From the IMG/VR virus record IMGVR_UViG_3300031918_000730, positions 1 to 64,000 of that record: a stretch of 64,000 nucleotides of DNA, one strand, 5' to 3'. This document shows positions 31,678 through 62,917 of the stretch, one piece after another. Under the pieces are notes generated by a model. That model made no database searches and had not been told where the DNA came from. It saw only the letters and a program-made list of their open reading frames with translations. The stretch comes from a virus. A program made the position numbers and the translations under genes. Every line of letters begins with the position of its first letter. Position 1 is the first letter of the stretch.

Positions 31678-31683
31678 TATTTA
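31678..31683 (-). promoter_or_regulatory. Late promoter, leaderless spacing
   Basis: 5 nt to ATG 31672. Confidence 0.65.
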
Positions 31684-33357
31684 CTCGTCTTCCAGTTCAG
31701 CGTCTTCGTTGGTATACGACAGGTCAAGTCCGTCGATGGAAATGCCATTGAACGAGAACGTCTTGTCAATGGTGTGTATTTCCTGAGGATAGTCTTCCTC
31801 GTAGTAGAATTCTTCGCGAGTATAGAAGTGCCTCGCTAGATTAGAACGGTACTCCACATCGTGCTTAGCTCTGTTCGAATAATGCACATCCTCGATACAG
31901 TGATGAAGGTCGAATATTCTGGCAAGTGTCTTTGACTTGTGTAGTCGAAGACTTCGTCCAATTGACTGTAATATTAGAGTATAGGATGCACACGATGCAC
32001 CGAAAATCACATTATGTAGATTCTTCATGTTAAGACCAGTGCCGAAGGTCTTATATGTAGCGACGACTATGATTCCAGCCTTTGATTCGAGGTCGGCTAG
32101 AATCCGCTCTCGTTCAGTCATGGAGATCTCACCATACGCCATCCTAATATCATAGTCAGGGTGGAGTTTCTTTAGCATTTCTGCCATCTCCTCCACTTCC
32201 TTATTGGCGATGAACTTCATTAGGATGAGAGTATTCTGATCCTTGGTAATGACTTCATCCCTTATTAGGGTATGTACTGCATATTGCGCAGACTTAGTGA
32301 GTCTCGCGAGTTCATACTCGGCCTTGGAAGGGATTTTCTTCTTCCTGCATAGTTCAATGGTGTACTTATCATACGGAATTTTGACCTCTACGATACTAGC
32401 CATGGAAAGTTCTCCACGGTCTATTAGCTCCTTAGAGGAAATGACATGTCTAATGTCTCCGAAATTACCTACGATTACTTTCTGGTTGAGAATGTTTCGT
32501 GGTATAGTTCCGGTCAGTCCAAATCTATACTCTGCATTGCAACATGCACCTACAACTCTATTGATGACGGCATGGTCATTTTTTGCAGTATGAAGTTCGT
32601 CGACAATGAGGCAGTCGAAACGCTTGAAATACTCCTCGAAGGTCTTCTTTTCTAGCATAGTCCCCATGGACTGCCAAGTACTAATCAATATTGGCTTCCT
32701 AATAGCCTCTTTCTTTTCCTTGATTGTGAAATCTGAATGATACATTCCAACATATTCACCTAGATCCTTCCAATAATAGTCATCCCTGAAATTACGGAAC
32801 AATTGATTTACGAGGTTAATATTAGGTACTAGGATGAGGATATTCATATCCTGCTTAATGATCCTACGAAGGAATCTAACTATCATATAGATGGCAAGAC
32901 TCTTACCTGCACCAGTCGCGGCACGGAATGACGATCTCTTATATGCTAGAGAAAGTTCTAGTATCTTCTGTTGATAGTCTCTAGGATTCAATCCACATGC
33001 TTCACCAATCGCTTTACAGAATGAGGCAATTAGTTCGCTATAGTCCTCTGTCGATGAAAAAGATGAGACTATTTCAGGATCTACCTGAACATTCCATCCA
33101 AACTTTCTGAGACTCTGAACTCCCTCTCTAACTAGACCTAATGGAATTAAACTAGGCAGTATCTTGTATAGCCTAATCTTTCCATCATACTTAGTGAAGC
33201 GTCTTTTCTGAAACCTAGGATCGAACATGAATCCTTCAGGTCTTAATGCAAATAGATTATCTAAAGTCACATATGGACTCTGCTTATATGGGTCTTCTGG
33301 AGTTGGTTGCCAAATTACCTTTGCATGAGAGTTATTGAGCTTCTTAAAAATTACCAT
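31681..33357 (-). CDS. uvsW: UvsW SF2 DNA helicase
   Basis: DGKIRLY, PRDYQ, ATGAGKS, ISTWQS, IVDELH, GLTGT, LQSIGRSLR. Confidence 0.93.
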   Translation of the reverse strand: MVIFKKLNNSHAKVIWQPTPEDPYKQSPYVTLDNLFALRPEGFMFDPRFQKRRFTKYDGKIRLYKILPSLIPLGLVREGVQSLRKFGWNVQVDPEIVSSFSSTEDYSELIASFCKAIGEACGLNPRDYQQKILELSLAYKRSSFRAATGAGKSLAIYMIVRFLRRIIKQDMNILILVPNINLVNQLFRNFRDDYYWKDLGEYVGMYHSDFTIKEKKEAIRKPILISTWQSMGTMLEKKTFEEYFKRFDCLIVDELHTAKNDHAVINRVVGACCNAEYRFGLTGTIPRNILNQKVIVGNFGDIRHVISSKELIDRGELSMASIVEVKIPYDKYTIELCRKKKIPSKAEYELARLTKSAQYAVHTLIRDEVITKDQNTLILMKFIANKEVEEMAEMLKKLHPDYDIRMAYGEISMTERERILADLESKAGIIVVATYKTFGTGLNMKNLHNVIFGASCASYTLILQSIGRSLRLHKSKTLARIFDLHHCIEDVHYSNRAKHDVEYRSNLARHFYTREEFYYEEDYPQEIHTIDKTFSFNGISIDGLDLSYTNEDAELEDE

Positions 33358-33926
33358 TGCATGTTATTCTTAATTCTCAATATATTTATTGCGTTACTTA
33401 TTCTATATGAGATTGAATCGATTCTAGCCATAGCTTTTTCAATGACAGAAAGAACAGCACGAATGTTATTGATCTTCTCCTCTAACTCAATATGCTCAGG
33501 ATTGATAGTGATGAGGTTTTTGATTTCCTTATCATTTAGAAGAACTCCATTATGGACCTCTGGATTCCTCTTATATTCTTGAGTGATGAGAGCCTCTAGA
33601 GCTAATAGCTTCTTGGTATTCTTTTCCAAGAATCGATTATACTCATTATGTCTACGGACCCATTTAGACTCAATGATGTTTATACTAGCATTGTAGTTAT
33701 ATAGAAGGTCTAGATCAGTAGGTACTGCGGTATCTTCCTCAAACTCATTCATCAGTTGCGTGACTGTGTGAGTCTGGTTTCTCTCGAACTCTATGATCGA
33801 TGGAGATGAGAATTTCAGGTTTAGCTCTACAGTTATGCCTGCTCTGATCTCGTTGTAGGTAGCTGGAGCCTTGAGTTCTACTTCACCCTTATGCACCTTA
33901 GATCTAGTTTTCTTTTCCGTTTCCAT
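33351..33926 (-). CDS. uvsY: Recombination mediator UvsY
   Basis: C-terminal EIKNLITINPEHIELEEKI...IEKAMARIDSISYRISNAI pattern; adjacent to uvsW. Confidence 0.7.
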   Translation of the reverse strand: METEKKTRSKVHKGEVELKAPATYNEIRAGITVELNLKFSSPSIIEFERNQTHTVTQLMNEFEEDTAVPTDLDLLYNYNASINIIESKWVRRHNEYNRFLEKNTKKLLALEALITQEYKRNPEVHNGVLLNDKEIKNLITINPEHIELEEKINNIRAVLSVIEKAMARIDSISYRISNAINILRIKNNMQW

Positions 33927-33932
33927 ATCTCT

Positions 33933-33941
33933 ATTTTAGCA
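33933..33941 (-). promoter_or_regulatory. Extended -10 TGCTAAAAT, leaderless spacing (uvsY)
   Basis: 6 nt to ATG 33926. Confidence 0.7.
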
Positions 33942-34014
33942 TTAATGATGCTTCGCTAGATAGTCTAGTTTGTCTAGGTGAGCCTCACACTGGAGAAACT
34001 CTCAGTCTTTCTTA

Positions 34015-34146
34015 GCTTTAGATATTTTTATTTTTCATTTTTCTTTTTGAGAGATTTCTCTTTTCAATCTATAAAAATCTAAATGAGCCTATAAGAGACT
34101 GTCATAGACTCTCGCAGGCGCACCTCCTCCAATTCCCCCTAACCCC
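34015..34146. other. Candidate replication-origin element: AT-rich unwinding tract plus minus-strand G-tract
   Basis: T-rich 34015-34085; minus-strand GGGGTTAGGGGGAATTGGAGGAGG at 34146-34123; upstream of uvsY. Confidence 0.4.
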
Positions 34147-34416
34147 ATAAGCCAACATTTCGAGTTTTGTTGGAAGGTTAGAAGTACTTGTCCCCGCATA
34201 CGCAAACGCTAAACTCAGCTTGCGCACCCGTTCCCCCTCGAAGATTCACTGAATGGGTTTTACCCTGAGGCATTTCTCTTCCCTCACATCCAGCGCACTA
34301 GCATTCCCAGCACAAAAATCCATAGAATTCTCGACTGCAATGATCTCCGTAGCGTCACATGGCCTGCCTCATCGGCTATGGTATCCCCTGCTCCATGCAA
34401 CTCAGACTTTCATCTG
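34100..34416 (-). ncRNA. Candidate structured non-coding RNA (~300 nt)
   Basis: TGCTAAGAT promoter at 34430-34422; several helices with G-U pairs valid only on the minus strand; GAAA tetraloop; no ORF-track ORF on this strand; 3' end uncertain. Confidence 0.55.
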
Positions 34417-34421
34417 TCAGT

Positions 34422-34465
34422 ATCTTAGCAGGATTTTTCTACATACTAGCGTAAATTGCTACAAT
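34422..34465. promoter_or_regulatory. Divergent extended -10 promoters
   Basis: Minus TGCTAAGAT 34430-34422 (candidate ncRNA); plus TGCTACAAT 34457-34465. Confidence 0.7.
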
Positions 34466-34483
34466 CAAGGTAAAGGAGAACAC

Positions 34484-35857
34484 ATGGTAGACGTAGAACA
34501 GCAGGTCATTGACCTCGCTAAGGTCGGAAAAACAGTAAATTATATCTCTGAACTGACCGGACTCACCAGAACTCAGATCGCAAATGTACTCATCGAGTAT
34601 ATCGGAGACACTGCAGTAACTGGAAACGGAGTATCTCTCACTCACTCAAGCCTTTCTATTGTTGAGGAAACTAATCCTGACAAAAATAGTAGAGAATTGA
34701 CTGTTAAGTATGCTGGCTCCCAAAAAACTCTAGAAGAGCTACTCGCCGAGTTGAAAATTGACAAGTCCATTTGGGAAGTGTCTACAGTAACCTACAACGA
34801 GTGGGATGGAATGCGCCCTAATGATCAGGGTGTGATCAAGCTCCATCAAATCAAAGTTAGCTTTAAGCGTATCAAGCTAATTGCAAACTATGAATTGCCA
34901 GCACCTATCAACATCACTGTCAAATCGTTCAATAACGGTAATGGTAGCAAGAAGAAGGCGTCTTCAGTTAAGACTGCCGTCATTCTACCTGACATGCAGG
35001 TCGGTTTCAAGCGCAATCTGATCACAGGAGAACTAACTTCGCTACATGATAGGCAGGCAATGGATGTCGCCCTTCAAATTGCAAGGTATGTAAGGCCGGA
35101 TCGTATCGTCCTGCTTGGAGATAATCTAGATCTCCCGCAGGAATCGAAATACCCCACCGGACCTGAGTTCTACTTCACCACTCAAGCCGCCGCAGTCGAA
35201 CTAGCATGGTGGTTAGCTCAGTTGAGATCAATCGACCCTCATATCGAAATCGATTACATCTCAGGAAATCATGATCTCAGGGCCGAGAAAGTCTTGATGC
35301 AGAATGCTATTTCCGCATATGGACTCAGAGCCGCAGACGATCTCAACGGACCCCCACTCCTCTCCATTCAGAAGCTACTAGGTCTTGACAAGCTCAATAT
35401 CAAGTACCACCCTGAATACCCTAAGAGTAAGGTTGTTCTCAATGAGAACCTAGTTTGCATCCACGGAGAAATCGCAAAGGGTGAATCCGGGGCTACAGTT
35501 TCTGCAGTTGTGAAGGATACTAGAGTTTCTGTAATTCAGGGACACATCCATCGATACGAAGTCGCAACCAAGACACTGTGGAGCGCAGACGACAAGGCAC
35601 ACATGTATACAGCCGCCTCGTTCGGTTGCCTATGCAAGATCGATCCGGGTGTCGTTCCGGGCGTGAAGGCATACCAGAACTGGCAACAGGGCCTAGGTAT
35701 TGTCTACTACGAGGACACTGGAGTCCAGCAGTTCAGACAGGAGTTCATCCCTATCATTGAAGGTCGCGCAATCCTACAAAGTGAAATATTCAACGCAACT
35801 GAAGAGGATGAAATCATCAGTGCAATTGAATACGACACAGGGTTTAAGGTAAAGTAA
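34484..35857 (+). CDS. Calcineurin-like metallophosphoesterase with N-terminal HTH
   Basis: PDMQ, LGDNLD, GNHD, IHG, GHIHR; start reassigned by SD AAGGAG and TGCTACAAT promoter. Confidence 0.85.
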   Translation: MVDVEQQVIDLAKVGKTVNYISELTGLTRTQIANVLIEYIGDTAVTGNGVSLTHSSLSIVEETNPDKNSRELTVKYAGSQKTLEELLAELKIDKSIWEVSTVTYNEWDGMRPNDQGVIKLHQIKVSFKRIKLIANYELPAPINITVKSFNNGNGSKKKASSVKTAVILPDMQVGFKRNLITGELTSLHDRQAMDVALQIARYVRPDRIVLLGDNLDLPQESKYPTGPEFYFTTQAAAVELAWWLAQLRSIDPHIEIDYISGNHDLRAEKVLMQNAISAYGLRAADDLNGPPLLSIQKLLGLDKLNIKYHPEYPKSKVVLNENLVCIHGEIAKGESGATVSAVVKDTRVSVIQGHIHRYEVATKTLWSADDKAHMYTAASFGCLCKIDPGVVPGVKAYQNWQQGLGIVYYEDTGVQQFRQEFIPIIEGRAILQSEIFNATEEDEIISAIEYDTGFKVK

Positions 35858-36195: not shown

Positions 36196-36487
36196 TTTTC
36201 CATCAGAGACTGTAGAGGAAAAAGCATTCAGGGAATGCTTTTTTCGTTATATGACTGAAGTTGAAGGCTTCGTCTCGAATGACATGCGAAAAAACGAACT
36301 CGCGCTAAAGATTGCAATGGAGTACTATAAGGAGGGCTATACTAAGCGTGTAGTGGATATGGCCGAGTACATGTATTACCGTACAAGTACAAACTACCAG
36401 AGTGCTACCATACAAGAGAAGAAGGTCGAGCCGCCTAAACCTAAGCGAGATAGACCCGGAAATCCATTTAGCAGATACAGGATCTAA
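36182..36487 (+). CDS. Hypothetical protein (start uncertain)
   Basis: Fills the operon gap and is coupled to gp46. Confidence 0.5.
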   Translation: MEAHNFPSETVEEKAFRECFFRYMTEVEGFVSNDMRKNELALKIAMEYYKEGYTKRVVDMAEYMYYRTSTNYQSATIQEKKVEPPKPKRDRPGNPFSRYRI

Positions 36488-38337
36488 TGTCACATACAGT
36501 CGTTTTCAAGAACTTAAGAGGGGCGAATTTCCTTAGATTTGGAAACGAGGAGTTCGTCTTTAATTTCTACGAAGGTGTCGTGGGGTTGATGGGCGAGAAC
36601 GGACTTGGTAAGTCGGCCATTCTCGACGCAGTCTGCATCTGCTTGTTCAACGAAACATACAGGAAATCGACTCAATCTGACTGGACTAATAACATCAATG
36701 GGTCTGGACTCTACCTCGGATTGACATTAGAGACACACGGTGCAACTGTAGACAAGTTCTATATTCTAAGGAAGCCAACATCAAGCAAGGCGCTTGATAA
36801 GTTGTCTATCTATAAGAACGATGTTCTATTGACTGGAATAACAAACTACCAAGAATATATCGAAAATACGATCCTCGGGTTCGGTGTTCATGTGTTCAAG
36901 AACGCAATCGCAGTGTCTGGAGGTACTCCATTTATCTCCATGACTCCAGAAGAGAAGCGCAAATTCTCAGACAGCTTGTTTTCCATTAAGCAGGTCAGAG
37001 AATACAAGAAGAGGTCGAGTGAAGCAGTCAGCGAGTTGAGTCTCAATAAGAGGATCATCGAACAGGAGATCGTTAGCGCACGTTCAAAGATTGCAGAGTA
37101 TGAGAACGTACTCACCATGACCTCATCGAATGTAGACGATCAAATTGCCGGATTACTTGCTGAAGTTGAGAATACTCAGAATGGAATCGACGAGTCTACT
37201 CGGATCATCTCCGAGTCGCAGATTCAACTAGATGCATATGGTGACTTGATTAACACCAAGAATTCTGAAATTGTGGCACTGCAGGCTAAGCTAGTTGAGC
37301 TTAATGCCAATGAAATCTACAAGGAAATTGCGAGAGTAAGCGCAAGTCTTGAACTATGCAGACGTGAATATCAGAAGGAAATTAACGAAAGTAATCGAAT
37401 TGCACCTAATGTGGTCTGTAAGTCATGCGGAAATCACTATACAGAAGAGCAAGCCAGTGAACATAAGGCATTGCATGTAGCTGAGGCCGCAACTGTAGGT
37501 GAAAGAGGCAAAGCACTAAAGGCTGAACTACTTGCATTGCAAGAGTCACTCCCTACCATTGAAAACGTCAAGGCGGCAATTGAGAAAATTAGATTCACTG
37601 AACTAGGCGAACTCAATAATGTAATATATTCGATAAAAGCTAATATCAATTTACACGCAAGTCGTGCTAATAACCTAGAAACAGTTAAGTACAGGTATTC
37701 ATCTCAGATCGAAACCCTTAGAGCTAAAGAAGACCAAAGTTCAATTAAGGTGTTTGCAGAGAATGCGATTAAAGAGGCTACTGCAATAATCGATACTAAG
37801 TCGGTTGTACTCGCAGAAAATGAGCGCAAGCTAAAAGCATATACCTACATCATCGAAATGTGCTCAGATAATGGAATAAAGCATTTGCTTCTTAAGGAGT
37901 TCATGCCTATTCTGAATCAGTTAATTGCGGCATACCTCGACAAGTTCGACCTGCCTATTACAGTGACATTTGACGAATACTTCAACCACGCACTAAAAGC
38001 ACCAAAGGGTCTTGGTCAGAAGCACTCCATGATGTCCAAGGGACAGCGGACTAGGATCAATCTAGCGATCCTGTTCGCAGTTTCTGACCTCATCAAGAAA
38101 ATGGGAAATGTCAAGTGCAACCTACTCATGCTTGACGAGTTTGCAGACGAAGGCATCGACCCTAAGGGTTTTAGAGCCGCAGTCGAGTCTATCCGCAGGG
38201 TTGCCGACCGTGACAATAAGAGCATCGTCCTAGTAACCCACAAGCAGGAAGACTTTCTATACGATAATTTGAATGCACTGTACGAACTGGAGCTAAGGAA
38301 TTCGTTCAGTGTGCTCAAGGAAGTTAAATCTTTCTAG
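36487..38337 (+). CDS. gp46: Recombination exonuclease ATPase subunit (T4 gp46, SbcC/Rad50-like)
   Basis: NFLRFGN, GENGLGKS, CKSC hook, MSKGQRTRINLAILF, LMLDE, VTH. Confidence 0.93.
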   Translation: MSHTVVFKNLRGANFLRFGNEEFVFNFYEGVVGLMGENGLGKSAILDAVCICLFNETYRKSTQSDWTNNINGSGLYLGLTLETHGATVDKFYILRKPTSSKALDKLSIYKNDVLLTGITNYQEYIENTILGFGVHVFKNAIAVSGGTPFISMTPEEKRKFSDSLFSIKQVREYKKRSSEAVSELSLNKRIIEQEIVSARSKIAEYENVLTMTSSNVDDQIAGLLAEVENTQNGIDESTRIISESQIQLDAYGDLINTKNSEIVALQAKLVELNANEIYKEIARVSASLELCRREYQKEINESNRIAPNVVCKSCGNHYTEEQASEHKALHVAEAATVGERGKALKAELLALQESLPTIENVKAAIEKIRFTELGELNNVIYSIKANINLHASRANNLETVKYRYSSQIETLRAKEDQSSIKVFAENAIKEATAIIDTKSVVLAENERKLKAYTYIIEMCSDNGIKHLLLKEFMPILNQLIAAYLDKFDLPITVTFDEYFNHALKAPKGLGQKHSMMSKGQRTRINLAILFAVSDLIKKMGNVKCNLLMLDEFADEGIDPKGFRAAVESIRRVADRDNKSIVLVTHKQEDFLYDNLNALYELELRNSFSVLKEVKSF

Positions 38338-38360: not shown

Positions 38361-39353
38361 ATGAGGAATGAAGATAGTTTTATTTCCGACCTGTTTAACC
38401 TATCTTCGTTTCAGTGGAATGCTGAACTAGCGAAAGAATTCAATTTTGACTTGGGTTCGCTAGTTCACGCCATAAACGACTATAATTACAACATACCTAG
38501 CGAAAAGACGATCCATAATTCAGGTCGATTGAATAAACAAGAGACTCTGAAGCAACCTGTAATAGTGAATCTAATGAAGCACGGTGAGGGGCTTGAAGAG
38601 GCTCCTCTTATTACTGACCCTTCACAAATATCCAAACTGATCGCCACCATGAGACGGTCGGTTAATGGCGTGATAGCTGACTACGGGAAGGGATTCCGTA
38701 GTTTTCTGATATTCGGGGTAGATTTCACTGAAGTTGAACTATCAGGTGTCATAATTGATGGGTGTGTTTTCAGTAATTGCACATTCAATCAATGCTTCAT
38801 GACATCTGCACTAGTCAGTGGAAGTAAATTCATAGAATGTAGTTTCGAAAAGTGCGATTTCTCTAATAGTAACTGGAGTAAAGTCGGATTATTCGGGATC
38901 AATTTCATCGATTGTAATCTAGAAGGGTCGAATATATTCGACTGCGTTCAACACGCAACGTCTTATTATGGATGTGAGCTAGACGGAGCCACCATAGTTG
39001 CAGGAAGTCTCCATCGAGTCGACATTGAGTCATGCTCGATGAAAAAAGCAAATCTACTCAACCTCATATTCAGCGCGATGACCTTGATTAATAGTAATTT
39101 GAGAGGTTCTCAAATTGTAAATAATCGTTTCATAGGTGCTAAGTTTGAAATGCTACATTTAGATACTGCAGTACAGTATTCTAATTCATTTGTAGGTTGC
39201 ACCACATCTTCAGAGGTTCTTGATTTCTTTAGCGAAGGAGAGTATGAAGACGAAGATCAAGGCGAACAGGAATCTGAAGGTCCACTTGACGAACTAACAG
39301 ACAGATCATTCGACGAAATAATGGGCGACGACGACGATGATGAACATGAATGA
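38361..39353 (+). CDS. Pentapeptide-repeat protein with acidic tail
   Basis: VDFTE VELSG..CVFSN CTFNQ..SKFIE CSFEK CDFSN repeats. Confidence 0.85.
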   Translation: MRNEDSFISDLFNLSSFQWNAELAKEFNFDLGSLVHAINDYNYNIPSEKTIHNSGRLNKQETLKQPVIVNLMKHGEGLEEAPLITDPSQISKLIATMRRSVNGVIADYGKGFRSFLIFGVDFTEVELSGVIIDGCVFSNCTFNQCFMTSALVSGSKFIECSFEKCDFSNSNWSKVGLFGINFIDCNLEGSNIFDCVQHATSYYGCELDGATIVAGSLHRVDIESCSMKKANLLNLIFSAMTLINSNLRGSQIVNNRFIGAKFEMLHLDTAVQYSNSFVGCTTSSEVLDFFSEGEYEDEDQGEQESEGPLDELTDRSFDEIMGDDDDDEHE

Positions 39354-41449: not shown

Positions 41450-42547
41450 ATGAGTAAAATAGCAGTAGTAGGCGATTTGCATCTTGGTGTCGCACCTAAC
41501 AACTCAATGAAGTTTGACATCATTTTCGACTCCCAGAAGAAGTTCTTCATGGAGTGCTTCATACCAGAACTACGGGCGCGTGGAATTGACACTATCATTT
41601 TCACAGGTGACTTATATGATCAGCGCAGAAGAGTCGATACTCAGATAACGCAATTCATTGAAGGACTATTCGAGAATGAATTAGCTGACTTCAAGTGTAT
41701 TGTGATTCAAGGTAACCATGACACTTACTATAAGGACGACCTCACCGTAACGTCTCTTTCTACTATTTGGTCGAAGAAGAACGTAACTGCTATTGTCAAG
41801 ATCACCCCTATGACGATACATGGGAAGAAGTTCCTGTTCGTACCTTGGTTGACTACTGCACTAGAGGCTAGTTTTGTCAGTAATGCAGAAAAAGCAAAAG
41901 GTAAGTTCGAATACCTAGTAGGGCATTTCGAGACTATTGGATTTCAGTACGAAGCTGGTAGCATAAGCACATTAGGTCTTGACGCAGAAGTGCTTTACGG
42001 TAATTTCAAGCACACCATCTCAGGACATTTCCACACTCAGACATATAAGGAAGTCGACGGCAATAGCATTCACTATGTGGGTACGCCTTTCCAGTTGACT
42101 TTTGGTGATGTAGGGGAAGTCAAGGGATTCAATATCATTGACGTGGAGACTAATGAGCGAGAATTCATTGAAAATAAGTTCTCCAGTAAATTCATTCGTG
42201 AATATAGTAGAGAGGATTTAGCTAAGTATGAATCTTTCGAGAACTGCTTTGTTGAACTGAAATATCCGCAGGGTACCACCGATGAGGAGCTATTCATTAT
42301 CGAAAAAGAGGTGAATGCTAAAGGCCCTATCACCTATAAGGCGTATCTGAATGTTGGCGATACAATCGAAGACATGATCTCCGAGCGTACTGACGTTGAG
42401 ATCAAGGCATTCGAGGATATGACTGTTGCAATTCATAGTGAAAATATGATCTCAATGACAAAAGTGTTTATGGAAGCTAAGCCATACGATGACCCTGAAA
42501 TGGTTATCGAATTAATAGAAGATATGAGAGCCAAAATCTCAGGCTAG
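41450..42547 (+). CDS. gp47: Recombination nuclease subunit (T4 gp47, SbcD/Mre11-like)
   Basis: GDLHLG, GDLYD, GNHDTYYK, VPW, GHFE, SGHFH, YVGTPFQLT. Confidence 0.93.
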   Translation: MSKIAVVGDLHLGVAPNNSMKFDIIFDSQKKFFMECFIPELRARGIDTIIFTGDLYDQRRRVDTQITQFIEGLFENELADFKCIVIQGNHDTYYKDDLTVTSLSTIWSKKNVTAIVKITPMTIHGKKFLFVPWLTTALEASFVSNAEKAKGKFEYLVGHFETIGFQYEAGSISTLGLDAEVLYGNFKHTISGHFHTQTYKEVDGNSIHYVGTPFQLTFGDVGEVKGFNIIDVETNEREFIENKFSSKFIREYSREDLAKYESFENCFVELKYPQGTTDEELFIIEKEVNAKGPITYKAYLNVGDTIEDMISERTDVEIKAFEDMTVAIHSENMISMTKVFMEAKPYDDPEMVIELIEDMRAKISG

Positions 42548-42556
42548 TGTTACCAT
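42548..42556 (+). promoter_or_regulatory. Extended -10 TGTTACCAT, leaderless spacing
   Basis: 6 nt to ATG 42563. Confidence 0.65.
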
Positions 42557-42562
42557 AATAGT

Positions 42563-44020
42563 ATGTCTAAGAAACACAATTCGCCAAATAGCCAAAAAGC
42601 ATCTTCGAAGAAGTCCGGCAAGAAGATTGCTCAGCTTCGGAAGGAGATTAGCGACCTCGAAAAGTCCCTGACTCCCGAGATGATCGAGAAGGTTAGTGCT
42701 CAGGTGATTGCATCGCAGAGCAACGCGCTCTACGGAGGCATTGCAAACACCGCAGAGAACTATCTGTCTAAGACTGTGATGGTCAATCCGAACGCCCCTG
42801 AGGACACCCTACAGGCCAATGTGTCTGTCCCCACTGCCGCCGCCATCGGACCTGTTGCATTGGTCGAGAAGCCATATGTCTACGGATACACTTCAGACTT
42901 TTCAGGGTCTGCACAGTTCCGTATGATCTTCCCCTTTAATGCAATCAACGCGCATTTCGGACATACTGGAAAGCTCCAGTGCATGGTGCAGAATCAGATT
43001 GTCACTCAAGAAGACATTCTTCCTTTCGTAAGGGCATTCTGGTTCAAGAATCCGTTCGAGAGCAACCGCTCGTATGAGATTTACGTTTACAAGAAGTATC
43101 AGGAAAGGTATCAGTACAAGCTGATCGCCGAACTCGACGACTATGTATTCGAATATCCAGAGTGGCATCCACTCCATGGAAAGTTCACAATTGATGATGC
43201 ACGCAACCTATTGGATAACCTGCGTAAGGTTGATGAAGTTGTGGTTTCTTCTGAGAATCTGAAGAGATTGCTTGTCGAGCTAGGAGTCAATACTCCAATT
43301 ACTCTCATGCCAAATCTCCTTCCGAAGGCATACTACGGAACAGACATCAGCAAGCGTTACCGTTTGAAGGATATTGCAAAGCCAACTATTCTATACAACG
43401 GAACAAACTACCACTACGGAAACTCCAACGGAGACTTCGACGGTCCTATCAAGGAATTCATCCTGAAGAACCTAGACAACTACAACTTCATCTTCATGGG
43501 TGTTGGTCGTAGATTGGATGGTTCCCTGACTCTCCCTGATTACTTGCAAGTTCCTGCAAAGGAAGGTCGCATCAAGATCATGCCGCACTATGCTCCGACT
43601 GAGTATCCATATGCTCTTCGTCAGTTGCGTCCTGATTTCGTCATCGCACCTCTCGCAGAATGCGCATTTAACGAAGCAAAGTCGGACCTTAGGTACCTAG
43701 AGTCTGCATCTACTGGAGCAATCTTCATTGGACAGTCCTTCGCAAACGGGAACAGTCCATATAAGTACTGCAGAAATGTCTTCGAAAAGGCATCCGACAT
43801 TGAGGAAATCGTAAATCGCCTCCTCAATAAGGACACTTTCAACGAGGCACTCAAGTTACAGTACGAAGAGCTTAATACCAGATGGCTCGACGACGTGAAT
43901 AACCTCTTGAATATCGTCAAGATCTTCGGAGAGGGTTTGAACGGAGTCCAGTTGACACCTGAACATGAACAGTATAATCAGTTCAAGAATAGGCTCGACG
44001 AAGACGGATTCTTCCGGTAA
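42563..44020 (+). CDS. Glycosyltransferase (GT-B fold)
   Basis: DFSGSAQFRMIFP, ELDD, PNLLP, IAPLAECAFNEAKSDLRYLE. Confidence 0.8.
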   Translation: MSKKHNSPNSQKASSKKSGKKIAQLRKEISDLEKSLTPEMIEKVSAQVIASQSNALYGGIANTAENYLSKTVMVNPNAPEDTLQANVSVPTAAAIGPVALVEKPYVYGYTSDFSGSAQFRMIFPFNAINAHFGHTGKLQCMVQNQIVTQEDILPFVRAFWFKNPFESNRSYEIYVYKKYQERYQYKLIAELDDYVFEYPEWHPLHGKFTIDDARNLLDNLRKVDEVVVSSENLKRLLVELGVNTPITLMPNLLPKAYYGTDISKRYRLKDIAKPTILYNGTNYHYGNSNGDFDGPIKEFILKNLDNYNFIFMGVGRRLDGSLTLPDYLQVPAKEGRIKIMPHYAPTEYPYALRQLRPDFVIAPLAECAFNEAKSDLRYLESASTGAIFIGQSFANGNSPYKYCRNVFEKASDIEEIVNRLLNKDTFNEALKLQYEELNTRWLDDVNNLLNIVKIFGEGLNGVQLTPEHEQYNQFKNRLDEDGFFR

Positions 44021-44419: not shown

Positions 44420-47254
44420 ATGTCGATGTTTAAGAATCTTTGGCTAGATCGCACAAAGAACCAGATGCACCTATGGTCAACGGACGGTGCCCACAACATT
44501 TACGATTTCAAGTGCAAATCCTACGAACTAGCACCTGATCTCACAAATGCAACTATGAGAACTGTCGAGGGGATGCCCGTTCGCGCAGTTTATGATACTT
44601 GCATGGATGAGCGTAATAAAATCAACGCAGAAATCCGAAACTCTGAATCTGATATTCAACCAGAGATCAGGTTTATTGCAGAATACTATAAAAACGTAGA
44701 TAACCTTAAGTTCGACTTCAAGGACTTCAACGTATGCTACTTCGATATTGAAGTAGAGGTTGACAAGGGCTTCCCTCATCCTGCAGAAGCCGCACGAAGA
44801 GTAAATCTCATTACCGCATATGGTAGCAAAGCCAATGAATTTGTTACTTTCGGCCTTGAGAAAGAGTTCATCGAGCATGTGTACCTCACCGACGAAGAAA
44901 TCAAGAACGGTGCGTTCCCAGACGGACACGAAGATTACCGTGAAATGTCGGCTGAAGGGTATTTTGTCAACAAGACAAGATACTACGTCAAGCGAGACAA
45001 GACACTAAAGTTCGATAGCGGTGCCGCAACTGAACTAGGTTACACTAATAATCACGTTTACGTCAAATGTGACGATGAGATTGAACTCCTCGAACGATTC
45101 TTCACATACTTCGACAATCAGAAGTTCGACGTAATTACAGGATGGAACTGTCAGACCTTCGATATTCCATACTTGGTAAAGAGGTGCGAGAACTTAGGTT
45201 TACAGGATCATCGCAAGTTCTCACCTGTCAGGAGAGTCTACCTAGTCGAGAAGAGAAACGACTACAATAAGCTAGACCTGATCCCAGTGATTGGTGGGAT
45301 GTCAGTAATTGACATGCTCCATGCATACAAGAAGTCAAATCTGAAGCAACAAGAGAATTACAAGTTAGGTACTATTGCTAGTATCGAACTGAAGACTACA
45401 AAATTGGACCTTGGTGTCGACGGACTCAAGCTCTATAAAAAAGGCCAGAACGGCTGGACTAAGTTCACAGAGTATAACGTCATCGACGTAGAACTTCTTG
45501 TCCAATTAGAGTTCAAGAAGCACTACCTAGAGTCGGTAATTAGCGTTTGCGCTGACGCAAGAATACCTCTCGAATACTTCTTCATCTCGAAACGAGTAAT
45601 TCTCGGATTCATGATGAACTATATGCACAACAAGGGACTAGTAATTCCGCATCCGGGAGAACAGCAACACGTCCCATATGAAGGTGCATATATTGCGGCA
45701 AATCCGGGAGCATATCGATGGGTCGTATCGTATGACTTTAAGGCCATGTATCCGTCCATCATCGCATCTGCGAATATCTCAACCGAGACTAAATTCAAGG
45801 GTCCAGTTCCTCCTGATGGAAGTTACTCGAAGTCTGTCATTAAGGACGTATGGTACAATAACGAGACTCTAGGAATCATCCCAGAGATTGTGTCGATGGT
45901 TGTTGATGACCGAGACAAGTACAAGAAGCTCCAGAAGGTCCATTCAAATCCTTCTGATAAGGCTAATTACGACCCAGAACTCGCAGGTTTCTACAAGCGT
46001 AAGCAGGAAGCATATAAGATCTACGCAAACTCGATTTACGGTTTGCTCGGAAATAGACACTTCCAGTTCTACGACGTTGACAATGCCGCATCGGTTACTG
46101 GTATTGGAAGGTATTTGATCCAGTACTGTATCGACTACATCATCAAGTGGTTCGACATGGGGCTTCCCATTAGCGAGAAGTTCAAGCACGAGTTCGGAGA
46201 TTATGCCAATGTAACAATTAAGGGCGTACTCGACGAGTCCTACATTTGCGAACAGGAAGATAGAGATACTCTCGGCAAGTATAAGAGACTGGTTCTCGCA
46301 CATACCGACTCATTCTTCTTAGATTTCTCAGACATCTATTCTCCATTCATTGGGAAGAAGAGGACTGCAGAGGAATTCAAGGCGCTCATGGACAGGTACT
46401 CAAACCCTGAATCCCCTGACTGTGACTCTTCAGTTTTTTCGATTCTCAAGAGTCGGTGGGAAGACAATACTTGGGAAGAGATGTCACTCACTGAGTTCTC
46501 GTTGCGCTTCGAACACTGCGTCTTCGGAGATGTCCGCACCAAAATCTTGGCAAGATGGGCCAAGGAGAACAACTACAGGGAGAACAGGCTCTGGCTCAAG
46601 CTAGAAAAATGCTGTAATCACCTGATAGAGTTGACAAGAGCGCACTACATATGTTATCTTCAGTACGACGAAGGTGACGACCTCTTGAACCTGCCGTTCG
46701 AGAGTCGCTTCAAGCCCGTCGGCGTTGAGTTGGTTAAGTCTGACACACCGTCTTGGAGTAAGGTACACATCAAGAAACTACTAGAAATGGTATTCAATGA
46801 TGCGTCGAAGGATGAGATCATCAAGAAAATTGGAGAGTATCGCAAAGATTTCAGAGATCCTGCCAACATTGCCTCGATTTCAAAGCCAGTCTCGATTAAT
46901 ACTCTAGATGCGGCTAAGAACAACGTAATGCCAGCACCTCGAAAAGGAGCGAACGCATTCAATATGGTGATCGATAGTTCTGAAGACTATTCTGGGTACG
47001 AAACTATATCAGAAGGAACCAAGGCGAAGTGGATCTATGTCAAGACTCCTAATCGATTCGAGACAGAAGTAATTACCTACAACGTAGATACTTGGCCTCC
47101 ATTCCTAGATAAGTATTTCCAGATAGATCACGAAGTTCAGTTTGAGAAGGTTTTCAAGAAACCACTAGCAAAAATCTTCGATACGATGGGATGGGGAAAC
47201 ATCTTCGAAGGCAACATGGATCTCCTCGCAAAATACATGAGAAAGGCACCGTAA
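44420..47254 (+). CDS. gp43: Family B DNA polymerase (T4 gp43-like)
   Basis: ExoI FDIEV, ExoII GWNCQTFDIPYL, ExoIII YNVIDV; motif A DFKAMYPS, motif B KIYANSIYG, motif C AHTDS. Confidence 0.95.
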   Translation: MSMFKNLWLDRTKNQMHLWSTDGAHNIYDFKCKSYELAPDLTNATMRTVEGMPVRAVYDTCMDERNKINAEIRNSESDIQPEIRFIAEYYKNVDNLKFDFKDFNVCYFDIEVEVDKGFPHPAEAARRVNLITAYGSKANEFVTFGLEKEFIEHVYLTDEEIKNGAFPDGHEDYREMSAEGYFVNKTRYYVKRDKTLKFDSGAATELGYTNNHVYVKCDDEIELLERFFTYFDNQKFDVITGWNCQTFDIPYLVKRCENLGLQDHRKFSPVRRVYLVEKRNDYNKLDLIPVIGGMSVIDMLHAYKKSNLKQQENYKLGTIASIELKTTKLDLGVDGLKLYKKGQNGWTKFTEYNVIDVELLVQLEFKKHYLESVISVCADARIPLEYFFISKRVILGFMMNYMHNKGLVIPHPGEQQHVPYEGAYIAANPGAYRWVVSYDFKAMYPSIIASANISTETKFKGPVPPDGSYSKSVIKDVWYNNETLGIIPEIVSMVVDDRDKYKKLQKVHSNPSDKANYDPELAGFYKRKQEAYKIYANSIYGLLGNRHFQFYDVDNAASVTGIGRYLIQYCIDYIIKWFDMGLPISEKFKHEFGDYANVTIKGVLDESYICEQEDRDTLGKYKRLVLAHTDSFFLDFSDIYSPFIGKKRTAEEFKALMDRYSNPESPDCDSSVFSILKSRWEDNTWEEMSLTEFSLRFEHCVFGDVRTKILARWAKENNYRENRLWLKLEKCCNHLIELTRAHYICYLQYDEGDDLLNLPFESRFKPVGVELVKSDTPSWSKVHIKKLLEMVFNDASKDEIIKKIGEYRKDFRDPANIASISKPVSINTLDAAKNNVMPAPRKGANAFNMVIDSSEDYSGYETISEGTKAKWIYVKTPNRFETEVITYNVDTWPPFLDKYFQIDHEVQFEKVFKKPLAKIFDTMGWGNIFEGNMDLLAKYMRKAP

Positions 47255-52527: not shown

Positions 52528-52536
52528 TGCTACAAT
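52528..52536 (+). promoter_or_regulatory. Extended -10 TGCTACAAT, leaderless spacing (primase)
   Basis: 7 nt to ATG 52544. Confidence 0.7.
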
Positions 52537-52543
52537 CCTCTAC

Positions 52544-53677
52544 ATGGAGGAAAGCAACGTCTTCGTGTCCCATTGGAACCATGCGGTAACCACCCCGCCA
52601 TCTAAGTTCCATGAGTACTTGACTAAATTCGGGGTAGAGGGTATTGAACCCAAGGGTAGGAAATTCCTATTCAGATGCCCTATATGCGGTGACTCTGCAA
52701 CTATTAAGTCGAAGAAGCGTGGATACTTAATCACGAATATCGACGGTAATGGCGCAATGGGATGTCATAACTGCGGATACAAATCATCATTCTCTAATTT
52801 CCTGAAGAACGAGAGCATTGGACTATACCGACAGTGGATACAGGATGTATTTGTAGGTATTTCACTAGACGACAGGGTACAGGAAGACAATCTCAACTAT
52901 GTAGAAGTTGCACTGAACGAGGAAGTGGTAGATTACTCACTATTTCTCCCATTGGCCAAGGTCAGCAACTCGCAGACATATAAAAAGGCAATGGAATTCG
53001 TATGCAGTAGGAAAATACCAAGGAAGCACGCGAGGCACTTCCTATATTGTGAGTCTGGAAAATACGCCAATCGAGTAATTATCCCCCACTACAATAAAGA
53101 CATGACATATAAGCACTTCGAAGCAAGAGATTTGCGCCCGAAGCCATTCGTCAAGTACCTATATCCAGAGAACTGGACTCCAAATAATTACAATCTTCCA
53201 CATCTCGACTTAGGCGTTCCATATTTCGCATTCGAGGGCGTGATAGACAGTCAATTCCTGAATAATTCAGGTGCATGTGGTGGCGCTCAGAAGTACGGAT
53301 ACTTCTTCGAGGCAATTCATAGGTCACTTCATCGCAATGGAATTGTATTCGCTGACGGAGACGAAGATGGAGTGCGAGTTTCCTTCAAGTATTTGAAGAA
53401 GGGCTTTAAGGTCTTCAAGTGGACCCGAGAGATGTTAGCTCTTGGAGTACATGACCTGAATGGACTTATCCAAAAAGGCTTTTTCAAGCCAGATGAGATG
53501 AATGCTGACGGAACGGTTAAGACTGAAGTGATAATGAAGCATGTGATCGAGCCTACAATTGGCGAAATACTATGCTTTCAGATGGATGCGCTTGATTTGG
53601 GTGTAAATGTTCTAGAAAGGAAACAGGATGTTAAGTTTGTTAAGCAAGAACGTCAAGATAATTGGTTTACATGGTAG
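52544..53677 (+). CDS. gp61: DNA primase (T4 gp61)
   Basis: FRCPICGDS..K.RGY..CHNCG; RVIIP; FEGVIDS; DGDEDG TOPRIM; DLN. Confidence 0.93.
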   Translation: MEESNVFVSHWNHAVTTPPSKFHEYLTKFGVEGIEPKGRKFLFRCPICGDSATIKSKKRGYLITNIDGNGAMGCHNCGYKSSFSNFLKNESIGLYRQWIQDVFVGISLDDRVQEDNLNYVEVALNEEVVDYSLFLPLAKVSNSQTYKKAMEFVCSRKIPRKHARHFLYCESGKYANRVIIPHYNKDMTYKHFEARDLRPKPFVKYLYPENWTPNNYNLPHLDLGVPYFAFEGVIDSQFLNNSGACGGAQKYGYFFEAIHRSLHRNGIVFADGDEDGVRVSFKYLKKGFKVFKWTREMLALGVHDLNGLIQKGFFKPDEMNADGTVKTEVIMKHVIEPTIGEILCFQMDALDLGVNVLERKQDVKFVKQERQDNWFTW

Positions 53678-54984: not shown

Positions 54985-55617
54985 ATGCAAGCCACTTCGA
55001 TAAGAAAATGCCCACGATGTAGTAGAGAATTAGCGTTATCTAGTTTCTATGTGAATAAGAAAACTGGTAGAGTATATTCGTATTGTAAGCAATGTAACAA
55101 TGAAATGAGTAGAAATAGAGATAAAGAAAAAACAAAGAAATATAATAAACTAAAATACTTAAAGAATAAGGAAGAGTATAATAAGAATAGCTCTGAAAAT
55201 TATTACGCGAATCAACAGAAATACATTGACTATGCCATTAAGAGAGAAGCCATTAGGAAACTTGAGGAGCCTAAGTATGCATTCACTAGGAGACTTAGGG
55301 ATAGGATCAGAAAATCGTTCAGGCGACTAAGTGTAAATGGAAAAGTTAAGTCATGTAAAGAATATGGAATCGACTTCGAAGAAATCTATTTACATTTAGG
55401 CGAAAAGCCTAGTGAGAATTTCGAATTAGATCACATTATTCCATTAAGTGTTTTTAACCTTGACATCGCTGAGCATGTCAAGTTAGCTAATTCTAAGTAC
55501 AACTTGAGATGGATTAGTTGCTCAGATAATAGAAAAAAGCACACTACGATCCCAGCAATCGCATATGAAGATGATAAACTTAGAGATATTTTAGTGGCTA
55601 TAGGTTTGTTAGAATAG
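54985..55617 (+). CDS. Free-standing HNH homing-type endonuclease
   Basis: CPRC..CKQC zinc finger; ELDHIIPL...NLRW...NRKK; AT-rich. Confidence 0.85.
   Translation: MQATSIRKCPRCSRELALSSFYVNKKTGRVYSYCKQCNNEMSRNRDKEKTKKYNKLKYLKNKEEYNKNSSENYYANQQKYIDYAIKREAIRKLEEPKYAFTRRLRDRIRKSFRRLSVNGKVKSCKEYGIDFEEIYLHLGEKPSENFELDHIIPLSVFNLDIAEHVKLANSKYNLRWISCSDNRKKHTTIPAIAYEDDKLRDILVAIGLLE
55607..55615 (+). promoter_or_regulatory. Extended -10 TGTTAGAAT, leaderless spacing (RuvC)
   Basis: 6 nt to ATG 55622. Confidence 0.65.
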
Positions 55618-55621
55618 GTAC

Positions 55622-56422
55622 ATGCGCATATTAGGACTTGACTTAAGTATTACATCCCCCGGCTTCTGCATAATGGACGTTAATGAGGACGATGGATATA
55701 GAATCCGACAAATCGACCTTCATGGCTTCACGAAGACTGACAAGTGGAAGTTTGAAGGAGATGGCCTAATAATCCACCAATTCCCGAAAGACTATAACCA
55801 ACACCCTTCACACTACAGACCTACACTGGTGTACGATATAGTGGAACCTTACCTGAAAGAGATTGACTATGTAGCCATCGAAGACTACGCTTTCGGTGCT
55901 AAGGGTAAGGTATTTGACTTGGCGGAATTCGCAGGGTCTATGAAAAACTACATGTACGATAGAAGAATACCTATCAAGAAGTTCCCCCCTATGACAGTGA
56001 AGCTATGTGCGGCAGGTAGCGGAGCGGCTGACAAGGTACTCATGGGAATGAGCTTCAAGGCATCTAGCCTATCTAAGTTGGTAAATCCGTATTTGTTCAT
56101 GCTCCCTGAGTACGATAACCCGCAAGAGGACTTGGTAGATGCAATCTATATGGCAAATACTCTAAGGGCTGAAATATGCTACATGGCAACAGGAGCTTTT
56201 CCAGTTGATCTCGGAATGAATGTGAATAATTGCGCAACTGCAATTCTATTGGGTAAGAAGGGGGCTAAGACTAAGCCTTCAATTGAACATCCACTCATCA
56301 CATTCGGAGCATTCACTAGAGTTAAGAAAGAGAAGAAGGTCAAGAAGAGTGACGCCGAGGTTGAAGTAAAGGTATCTAAGAAACGAGAACCTAAGAAGAA
56401 GCTGATAGTGCCCAAGCAATAA
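55622..56422 (+). CDS. ruvC: RuvC-like Holliday junction resolvase
   Basis: ILGLDLS..G, AIEDYAF, LAE.AG, PMTVK...GAADK, DLVDA. Confidence 0.85.
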   Translation: MRILGLDLSITSPGFCIMDVNEDDGYRIRQIDLHGFTKTDKWKFEGDGLIIHQFPKDYNQHPSHYRPTLVYDIVEPYLKEIDYVAIEDYAFGAKGKVFDLAEFAGSMKNYMYDRRIPIKKFPPMTVKLCAAGSGAADKVLMGMSFKASSLSKLVNPYLFMLPEYDNPQEDLVDAIYMANTLRAEICYMATGAFPVDLGMNVNNCATAILLGKKGAKTKPSIEHPLITFGAFTRVKKEKKVKKSDAEVEVKVSKKREPKKKLIVPKQ

Positions 56423-57166: not shown

Positions 57167-57175
57167 TGCTACCAT
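57167..57175 (+). promoter_or_regulatory. Extended -10 TGCTACCAT, leaderless spacing (rnh)
   Basis: 6 nt to ATG 57182. Confidence 0.7.
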
Positions 57176-57181
57176 AAAGAC

Positions 57182-58132
57182 ATGAAACTAAGACACCTAG
57201 TGGTTGACGTTGGTGGACTGTCCTACTGGAAGCTACACTCTCTCGCCAGCAAAATGAAGTGCGAACAACTCGGACTCCCTAAAGAAGCCATCCTAGCGAT
57301 GGAATCTGAAGGTGGATTTAAGGAGTGGATCTACGATGTCAAGATGGAAGTTCTTGATATGATCCAGAGCTTCAATCCAGATCTACTAACCCTTGCCTGC
57401 GACGGAAAGAACCTCTGGCGCAAGGACATTTATCCTGATTACAAGGATAATCGCAAGGCAAACAAGGCGAAAATCCCCATCGACTGGAATCTGTTCTATC
57501 AGACCAGAGACATGTTGATGAATGCATTCGCTGAGAATATGCCAGTCAAGACTGTCCTATTGGACCGGATCGAGGCTGACGATATTATTGCAGTATTGAC
57601 TGAGAAGCTACACGAAACTCAGGAAATCATTGCATTGTCGAATGACGCCGACTGGCATCAGTTGTTCAAGTACGAAGGATTCAGAGTCTTCAAGATCAAC
57701 GATCCAAGTCCAACTGCATATTTTAGCAGAGGCCCTGAGGGTAGAACTGAGATTACTGGAGTTGATCCGGTGAAACTCATTCAGATGAAGATTCTCACTG
57801 GTGATACCGGAGATAACATCCCCAACCTCAAGCCAAGACTTGGCGAGAAGACCGCAGAAAAAATCATCCTTGAGAGCAATGGAAACATTTACGCATATGC
57901 TCAGCGCGAAGGATTGCTTGCAGAGTTCGAACGTAACCAGAAGCTCATCAATTTGGACAGAATCCCACAGGAAATTAAGGATTCTATCTGGAATGCGTAC
58001 AATTCGAAGCCTGTTACCGAAGTTGATCATTTGCTGTTGATGGATTTCTATCCAGAAAACTACGATTTGATAACTCAAATGTCACATTTGCATATTTTCT
58101 CACATGCAAAAGTCAAAAATCTCGGCTGGTAA
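57182..58132 (+). CDS. rnh: 5'-3' exonuclease / RNase H (T4 rnh-like)
   Basis: WRKDIYPDYKDNR, EADDIIA, SNDADWHQL, GDTGDNIP. Confidence 0.9.
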   Translation: MKLRHLVVDVGGLSYWKLHSLASKMKCEQLGLPKEAILAMESEGGFKEWIYDVKMEVLDMIQSFNPDLLTLACDGKNLWRKDIYPDYKDNRKANKAKIPIDWNLFYQTRDMLMNAFAENMPVKTVLLDRIEADDIIAVLTEKLHETQEIIALSNDADWHQLFKYEGFRVFKINDPSPTAYFSRGPEGRTEITGVDPVKLIQMKILTGDTGDNIPNLKPRLGEKTAEKIILESNGNIYAYAQREGLLAEFERNQKLINLDRIPQEIKDSIWNAYNSKPVTEVDHLLLMDFYPENYDLITQMSHLHIFSHAKVKNLGW

Positions 58133-62171: not shown

Positions 62172-62588
62172 ATGGACCATACTAAGAAAACAACTTTCGC
62201 TGGATTCGTTAACATTGATAAGTCCAATAAGTATTGGATGGAAGGGCACTTCGAACACGGAGAAGACGCCCCTACACTATTCAGATTCAATACCAAGGAA
62301 GAGCGAGATACTGTTCAAGAGGTTGCCCAGTCGTATCTCGATAATTGGGGATGCGATGCGCTTGAACTTGTAATATTCGAAGCAAAGGCAAGACATGTGG
62401 TGACTTTGAAAAAAAGGACCGAGAGTGAAATCACATTAGCTAGGCAGAAATCTAAGAGTGATGCCGAAGCAAAGCGTGAACGCGCAGTCGCTGAAGTTGC
62501 TGTAGTGTCTCAGGTTGAGACAGGCACTCAACCAGACACCGCCCCTAAGAAGAGGGGTAGGAAACCCAAGACTAGTGCTACAATATAG
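62172..62588 (+). CDS. Hypothetical protein with C-terminal AT-hook-like KKRGRKPK
   Basis: 138 aa ORF. Confidence 0.55.
   Translation: MDHTKKTTFAGFVNIDKSNKYWMEGHFEHGEDAPTLFRFNTKEERDTVQEVAQSYLDNWGCDALELVIFEAKARHVVTLKKRTESEITLARQKSKSDAEAKRERAVAEVAVVSQVETGTQPDTAPKKRGRKPKTSATI
62576..62584 (+). promoter_or_regulatory. Extended -10 TGCTACAAT, leaderless spacing
   Basis: 6 nt to ATG 62591. Confidence 0.7.
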
Positions 62589-62590
62589 GC

Positions 62591-62917
62591 ATGAGCACAA
62601 AACTTAACCTGTCACAGCGCCTCTGGCTTATCGATTCTATCGGTAGCCTTCCATCAACCACTGAGAGAATCAAGGAAGCCGATGGATTCATCGCAATCCT
62701 TGCACCTAACGACGCCGAACTGAGTGTCGAAGGTTTGAATTTCACCGCAGACGAGAATGGTCTACAGTGGGATACTGCAGTTGAAGCCGAGAAGGTTCCT
62801 GCACTTGAAGTCGAAATCCCAGAGATCCTATACTCTGCACTGAAGGATAAATTTTCAGTTCAGATGAAAGATCCTACTGGACTTGACTTGGAAATGATCG
62901 ACCTACTCTCCCTGTAA
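62591..62917 (+). CDS. Hypothetical protein
   Basis: 108 aa ORF, TGCTACAAT 6 nt upstream. Confidence 0.6.
   Translation: MSTKLNLSQRLWLIDSIGSLPSTTERIKEADGFIAILAPNDAELSVEGLNFTADENGLQWDTAVEAEKVPALEVEIPEILYSALKDKFSVQMKDPTGLDLEMIDLLSL

Follow-up and report, generated by a model that had tools for sequence, protein, structure and literature searches.

The stretch of DNA analysed here (the window) covers 64,000 nt, positions 1 to 64,000 of the IMG/VR virus record IMGVR_UViG_3300031918_000730, which is 79.9 kb long and estimated to be 26% complete. The genome is that of an uncultured giant (jumbo) T4-like phage, whose DNA polymerase (44420-47254) is at most 27% identical to the polymerases of T4-like cyanophages and other T4-like phages. 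On the minus strand, a uvsY-like gene (33351-33926, PHROG 231) is followed downstream by a gene for a UvsW-like helicase (31681-33357; Pfam UvsW_N, ResIII and Helicase_C). On the plus strand, a gene encoding a metallophosphoesterase with a helix-turn-helix (HTH) motif (PHROG 20266) runs to 35857. Its listed open reading frame (34253-35857) is longer than the gene, whose true start is at 34484, where a ribosome-binding site and an ATG are conserved; the part upstream of 34484 is not conserved in the homologues. Between uvsY and this start lies a gap of 557 nt, the only large one in the neighbourhood, and comparative evidence places in it, on the minus strand (34081-34416), the gene for a structured RNA some 320-335 nt long. 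The predicted gene was delimited by conservation, by structure and by the match to our CM R1 (34088-34421). Its predicted start is near 34415/34416. Conservation as seen by BLAST and nhmmer stops sharply at about 34094-34096, where the conserved block ends (~34096), and a 3' hairpin reaches 34081.

Beyond the phosphoesterase lie an SbcC-like gene (36487-38337) and a second metallophosphoesterase gene (41450-42547), which is the genuine SbcD/gp47-like gene and is separate from the HTH-phosphoesterase. A pentapeptide-repeat protein gene (38361-39353) is found inside this recombination gene cluster. In the HTH-phosphoesterase, the first ~130 residues (window 34484-34880) precede the phosphoesterase domain, and the HTH-like motif is conserved within them (family consensus A3). 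In some relatives the open reading frame reaches 700-820 aa (L005 2875-5349; P0005, P0009, P0026 and P0028-P0030) instead of the usual ~457 aa, and in one of these long frames there is a LAGLIDADG-type domain (PF14528), a sign that the gene may have been invaded by an intein.

The block homologous to window 34096-34483 (76-84% nucleotide identity) was found, in the same gene order as in the window, on four IMG/VR contigs that represent three different phages. Viral, metagenome and genome collections were also scanned for sequence patterns, which gave these four phages again and one new metagenome contig (L030), all other matches being due to chance according to nhmmer and the CM check. Five distinct homologues are thus available (the window, three IMG/VR phage contigs and L030), and in all of them the RNA sits between uvsY/uvsW and the HTH-metallophosphoesterase gene. 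These five sequences make up alignment A4; Logan/ENA contain further relatives, whose phosphoesterase is 48-76% identical. The stretch is also present, almost unchanged, in 20 runs from 12 studies, in peat, freshwater and wastewater. One relative is complete (G001, 306,252 bp with direct terminal repeats) and carries a single copy of the RNA, at 77,686-78,012. The RNA occurs once per genome and, so far, in one clade of ~300-kb T4-like phages. No match to the element or to the surrounding 6 kb was obtained by BLAST against 50,697 phage records, nor was any found by BLAST against E. coli genomes and plasmids. CM R1 gave no match in 65 loci with distant phosphoesterase homologues or in 39 whole virus records of these, and a UvsW-based scan of IMG/VR yielded no further relatives. 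One 16.6-kb contig of an Ignavibacteria MAG (L109, G004:C20) is 99.97% identical to one of the phage contigs (L003), which is either a weak hint at the host or a binning error. In 150 genomes of the MAG's class, CM R1 produced a single match of 18.8 bits in a coding region, so that the RNA was not found there; the tmRNA of the complete relative, used as a host clue, had no BLAST-level match in 61 genomes of this class.

Among the homologues, the RNA is under stronger constraint than the adjoining protein genes. Its nucleotide identity to the window is 76-87%, compared with 61-69% for uvsY, 71-75% for uvsW and 63-71% for the first 735 nt of the phosphoesterase gene. Two metatranscriptomes give the same picture. 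In X19, the two pieces from the RNA have one changed letter each (1 of 147 and 1 of 151), compared with 10 of 151 and 5 of 104 in flanking pieces; in X20, a piece that is largely RNA has 4 changes over 273 letters, and the phosphoesterase gene 26 over 239. The variable columns of the RNA are spread over the three codon positions (44/37/36), without third-position bias, whereas the three neighbouring genes show a strong third-position excess of variation. Single-base indels separate the homologues within the RNA, and every reading frame of both strands is closed in at least one of the five.

The secondary structure was obtained by RNAalifold, which predicted ~90 pairs on the homologue alignment, and was then curated by hand into 12 helices with 90 pairs (449 cells counted on A4). 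Standard pairs occupy 96.4% of these cells, and double-sided changes were seen at 25 of the 90 pairs (42 cells); none of 500 column shuffles matched the observed pairing and double changes. When partners were slid by 1-3 columns as a control, pairing fell to 34-43% and the pairs with double changes to 2-6. Imperfect pairs are of the G-U type in 72 cells and of the A-C type in only 2, and the mirror structure on the plus strand is only 80.4% paired; both observations indicate that the RNA is read from the minus strand. The stems covary whereas junctions and terminal loops are invariant. Folding energies are more modest, with z-scores on the minus strand of -1.54 for 34100-34430 and -2.26 for 34081-34416, of -1.26 and -0.57 for two homologues, and of +0.12 for the plus strand, and the case for the RNA therefore rests on the comparative evidence rather than on folding energy. 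The GC content is 0.46-0.51 within the segment and 0.31-0.43 alongside, and the RNA-sense strand is G-rich.

The predicted fold (all coordinates on the minus strand) starts with a 5' cap hairpin and a small domain with two hairpins; a large central domain, which contains a three-way junction, comes next, and two hairpins make up the 3' side. The 5'-terminal hairpin H1 (34403-34416) has 5 bp and an invariant GAAA loop; all its cells are paired, with one double and three single changes. The H2 domain (34354-34401) is closed by a 9-bp helix (34401-34393 / 34362-34354) with compensatory changes from U-A to C-G and from C-G to U-A, and this helix encloses two small hairpins (34387-34380 and 34377-34365). 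The central domain (34237-34352) is closed by the long-range helix H5 (34352-34343 / 34245-34237; 9 pairs, 100% paired, 2 double-changed) and contains both H6 and the nearly invariant three-way junction. H6 (34302-34342; strands 34342-34328 / 34317-34302) has 14 pairs, 7 of them with double changes, and a tip whose length differs by up to 8 nt among homologues. The junction, formed by H7-H9 (34247-34295), has invariant junction bases and a conserved 10-nt loop; two of the 9 pairs of H7 (34295-34287 / 34255-34247) are double-changed, and H9 shows one double change. On the 3' side, H10 (34195-34230) has 13 pairs, 7 of them double-changed, and an invariant loop, and the long bipartite hairpin H11/H12 (34131-34188) has 20 pairs, 3 of them double-changed, and an invariant apical loop. 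Finally, the H10 and H12 loops may kiss (34162-34216), GAGUU (34216-34212) pairing with AACUC (34166-34162). This is the only run of at least 5 pairs between unpaired columns that is valid in all five sequences, and it stays a candidate because its five pairs are invariant and so lie beyond the reach of covariation.

A sequence-only reading of the window had already proposed a structured RNA on the minus strand, and the covariation of the five sequences backs the fold that it described. Its GNRA-type 5' hairpin (34416-34403), its 9-bp helix (34401-34393 / 34362-34354), its hairpin at 34230-34195 and its long hairpin at ~34184-34136, which A4 extends to 34188-34131, were all borne out. Of the three-way junction, the closing helix (34295-34287 / 34255-34247) stands, but the arm that had been drawn with 5 bp is better drawn with 3 (34283-34281 / 34270-34268). 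One helix had to be given up, since the hairpin at ~34313-34295 is not kept in the homologues and its bases form the 3' strand of H6 with its 7 covarying pairs, and the long-range helix 34352-34343 / 34245-34237 had been missed. The preference for G-U over A-C pairs and the higher GC content than in the flanks, both of which had been pointed out, hold in the counts given above. Of the checks that had been suggested, the search for covariation clearly favours the RNA, and the comparison of folding z-scores by strand does so in direction, the minus strand lying below the plus strand, but with borderline values (-0.6 to -2.3).

Upstream of the RNA lies an extended -10 motif, TGCTAAGAT (34422-34430, minus), kept in all homologues and taken here as a putative promoter, which sets the start of the RNA, as predicted, 7 nt further downstream, at the base of the GAAA hairpin. 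The same pattern, TGnTAnnAT, stands 6-7 nt before the ATG of eight ORFs of the window, which start at 26773, 29767, 33926 (uvsY), 42563, 52544, 55622, 57182 and 62591 (motif and ATG at 26788-26773, 29783-29767, 33941-33926, 42548-42563, 52528-52544, 55607-55622, 57167-57182 and 62576-62591), and also upstream of the phosphoesterase and DNA polymerase genes. Judged by its recurrence at these starts, the motif is a real promoter class that seems to make leaderless mRNAs, which suggests that many genes of the phage are expressed in this way; other genes, such as that of the phosphoesterase, retain a strong Shine-Dalgarno sequence. The start of the RNA at ~34415 follows from the same spacing between motif and start as in the leaderless genes. 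That the RNA has its own promoter, as the sequence-only reading had it, is thus plausible, and transcription from the minus strand by this extended -10 promoter, of a class that would also drive the replication and recombination genes of the phage, is what we infer. The divergent promoter of the phosphoesterase gene lies at 34457-34465 (plus), and midway between these two back-to-back promoters an invariant 10-bp box, AGTATGTAGA on the minus strand (34438-34447; invariant columns of alignment A1), may be the site of a regulator shared by the RNA and the phosphoesterase.

At the other end, the 3' hairpin (34081-34125, minus) has a conserved 5' half (34125-34106) and a variable 3' half, its conserved G[CU]CUG finding a different downstream partner in each homologue. 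A U-run follows it in the window only (one of the five homologues) and is short, which makes for a weak terminator-like site; with no strong intrinsic terminator, read-through towards uvsY is possible. The RNA and uvsY are separated by an A-rich, AT-rich spacer (33942-34080, minus, in the window, ~31-35% GC there), with 32-36% GC in all five homologues, 140-200 nt long and unalignable between them. The spacer contains lineage-specific repeats, namely four tandem 8-mers in L002 (~2540-2610), two 9-mers in L003 (~2590-2620) and 7 AGACT/AGTCT sites within 120 nt in L005 (~2520-2630), all of which could be protein-binding sites or slippage products; the density of AGACT/AGTCT sites in the window is unexceptional. 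The promoter-like motif of uvsY (33933-33941, minus) ends 6 nt before the ATG, an arrangement shared by all five homologues, none of which has a Shine-Dalgarno sequence at uvsY. Transcription of the RNA is hinted at by low-depth contigs from one metatranscriptome study, which are uninformative on ends, strand and level: in a 5-kb stretch that a DNA run covers almost entirely, the contigs of two RNA runs lie over 33839-34588 and hardly anywhere else. One of the RNA runs has no contig over 34425-34484, between the two promoters, and in the other a contig crosses the predicted start.

No described family accounts for the RNA. The whole window gave no match to Rfam 15 at gathering thresholds, and at E<=10 the window locus and three homologous loci gave only unrelated chance matches, none of them recurrent. 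Models of RNase P, tmRNA, SRP, 6S, introns and riboswitches did not match any of four homologues at E<=10, nor did the GOLLD and ROOL family models match, and ARAGORN found neither tRNA nor tmRNA in the window, in agreement with the earlier statement that the segment matches no recognisable tRNA, tmRNA, RNase P or intron core. Our literature search found no description of the RNA, and we have filed it as a new RNA family; with its covariation, its strand-specific G-U pairs and its lack of coding signal, the proposal of a new class of phage non-coding RNA gains support. It may be among the thousands of unnamed candidates of PMC10690425, where 8,890 candidate structured RNAs from IMG/VR are reported and at least three unique IMG/VR regions were required. 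Data source and kind of evidence (intergenic conservation and covariation) are the same as ours and the RNA occurs in enough regions; the words 'uvsY' and 'jumbo' do not occur in the main text of that paper. Its nearest counterparts are large "ornate" RNAs of bacteria and phages (GOLLD, RF01998; ROOL, RF03087; also OLE and raiA), which it resembles in being phage-borne and apparently promoter-driven, in its multi-domain fold with invariant junctions, and in having a function that cannot be deduced from its context. It differs in lacking any sequence or CM similarity to them, in being about half their size or less, and in not lying beside tRNA genes, the tRNA array being ~200 kb away in the complete relative.

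That array, whose 42 tRNA genes together serve all 20 amino acids, and the tmRNA of the same genome (190 bits, tag AEESYSYALAA) are found at 165.5, 181.1 and 281-297 kb (loci L126-L132), ~200 kb from the RNA. They make RNase P RNA (RF00010/RF00011) the obvious candidate if the RNA were a very divergent member of a known family. A phage so rich in tRNAs would have use for one, the length is similar, a short run after the 5' loop resembles the CR-I region of RNase P, and in the complete relative Rfam detected tRNAs and the tmRNA only, with no RNase P RNA elsewhere. This reading has nevertheless been largely refuted and we hold it to be very improbable: the CR-I-like run is the loop and 3' strand of the covarying hairpin H1; a search of the unpaired columns for the complementary 3' strand of a P4-like pseudoknot returned only the H10/H12 loop pairing, which leaves the RNA without P4 or a CR-I/CR-V pairing; and no model matched at E<=10 in four homologues, with nothing found in E. 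coli or in the 150 genomes of the MAG's class. That the locus is not an RNA gene at all, but a gene for a small protein, an N-terminal extension of the phosphoesterase or a site acting at the DNA level, is almost certainly wrong. The plus-strand ORF 34253-35857 does overlap the element, and one homologue has an open antisense frame of 230 codons, but the absence of a frame shared by all five homologues, the single-base indels and the codon-position test stand against coding, and the asymmetry between G-U and A-C pairs requires an RNA made from the minus strand, so that this reading is refuted.

The position of the RNA gives more weight to a part in replication. The oriF origin of T4 lies at uvsY, and the UvsW of T4 unwinds or removes origin R-loops; oriE, oriF and oriG of T4 are all at points of divergent transcription (PMC3016281). 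By analogy with oriF, or ori(uvsY), the transcript might be a structured pre-primer which, its 5' part folded as in ColE1 RNA II, enters the AT-rich spacer, forms a persistent R-loop and primes the leading strand; we consider this unlikely, yet worth serious attention. The RNA has the position of oriF, upstream of uvsY and with UvsW next door, at a point of divergent transcription with a local change of skew; a promoter followed by a 32-36% GC spacer is present in all five homologues, with short direct repeats in some of them. Like ColE1 RNA II, the RNA is folded, G-rich and made just before a possible unwinding region. However, a promoter and an unwinding element, ~100 bp in all, are enough for T4 oriF, whose R-loops form regardless of sequence (PMC3016281), and this leaves 320 nt of conserved fold unexplained. 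A promoter and an A+T-rich element, as in a T4-type origin, are indeed found, but the highly conserved, covarying structure comes in between and the promoter is 330 nt away from the beginning of the AT-rich part, and oriF depends on no particular RNA sequence or fold. That G-U pairs within the molecule are selected for implies a free RNA, the spacer is unconserved and not particularly dense in AGACT/AGTCT sites in the window, the GC skew of the complete relative tracks gene orientation without a global extremum at the locus, and, unlike ColE1, the locus has no detectable promoter for an antisense regulator or RNA I-like unit. The other role close to uvsY is that of a cis-acting leader or attenuator, in which the fold would sense a ligand or protein and decide whether transcription passes the 3' hairpin into uvsY-uvsW. 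In its favour, all five homologues have the RNA upstream of uvsY and in the same orientation, and two partners are open to G[CU]CUG, namely the 5' end of the RNA and the variable downstream segment with which it makes the terminal hairpin; mutually exclusive pairings of this kind are typical of switches. The end-to-end helix (5' end with 34120-34115) has 6 pairs, with 96.7% of cells paired and one double change among the five sequences, but on these few sequences the local hairpin H1 seems to fit the covariation better. The uvsY gene appears to have its own promoter 6 nt before the ATG, and on read-through RNA its AUG would be internal and without Shine-Dalgarno sequence, so that translation would be poor, which argues against a leader; the unconserved spacer between fold and gene, the U-run restricted to the window and the lack of any match to an Rfam riboswitch family point the same way. 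The locus showed no aptamer joined immediately to a terminator or to the start of the regulated gene, and the leader is to our mind a distinctly improbable role.

We therefore favour, at about an even chance and as the most likely of the readings, a free-standing gene for a folded RNA of a new family that acts in trans. Few large RNAs combine many covarying helices with invariant junctions, and those that are understood so far act as ribozymes, guide RNAs, protein scaffolds or self-assembling particles; the trans-acting reading takes its prior from these roles of other large ornate RNAs. The RNA would be transcribed as an independent unit, in keeping with its own conserved promoter, the protective 5' hairpin and the sharp edges of conservation, and its two 3' hairpin loops would pair with each other. 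It probably acts as a scaffold or binding partner for a protein of the phage or host, at a time when the replication and recombination genes are expressed. The promoter class seems also to drive leaderless genes including uvsY itself, which makes the RNA an unlikely leader of uvsY. Complementarity to the rest of the window consists of 10-12-nt runs at about the rate expected by chance, with no signal of a target or sponge. The five sequences are closely syntenic, and for this reason context does not separate trans from cis roles.

More speculatively, and rather improbably in our estimate, phage DNA replication or recombination could involve the RNA as the core of a new ribonucleoprotein or ribozyme, or as a structured origin RNA by which the timing of R-loop priming is controlled. 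In the former case it might work with the product of the divergent HTH-metallophosphoesterase gene or with the UvsY/UvsW machinery. The value of the finding is limited by the narrow distribution, the five distinct sequences and the lack of a cultured host. The RNA lies where T4 has its best-studied R-loop origin, so that one can test concretely at this locus whether replication initiation or recombination in a phage involves a folded RNA. If it has no such part, it would be a new trans-acting phage RNA; if it is instead a ribonucleoprotein core, a ribozyme or an origin RNA, it would represent a new class of large functional RNA, beyond another regulatory small RNA.
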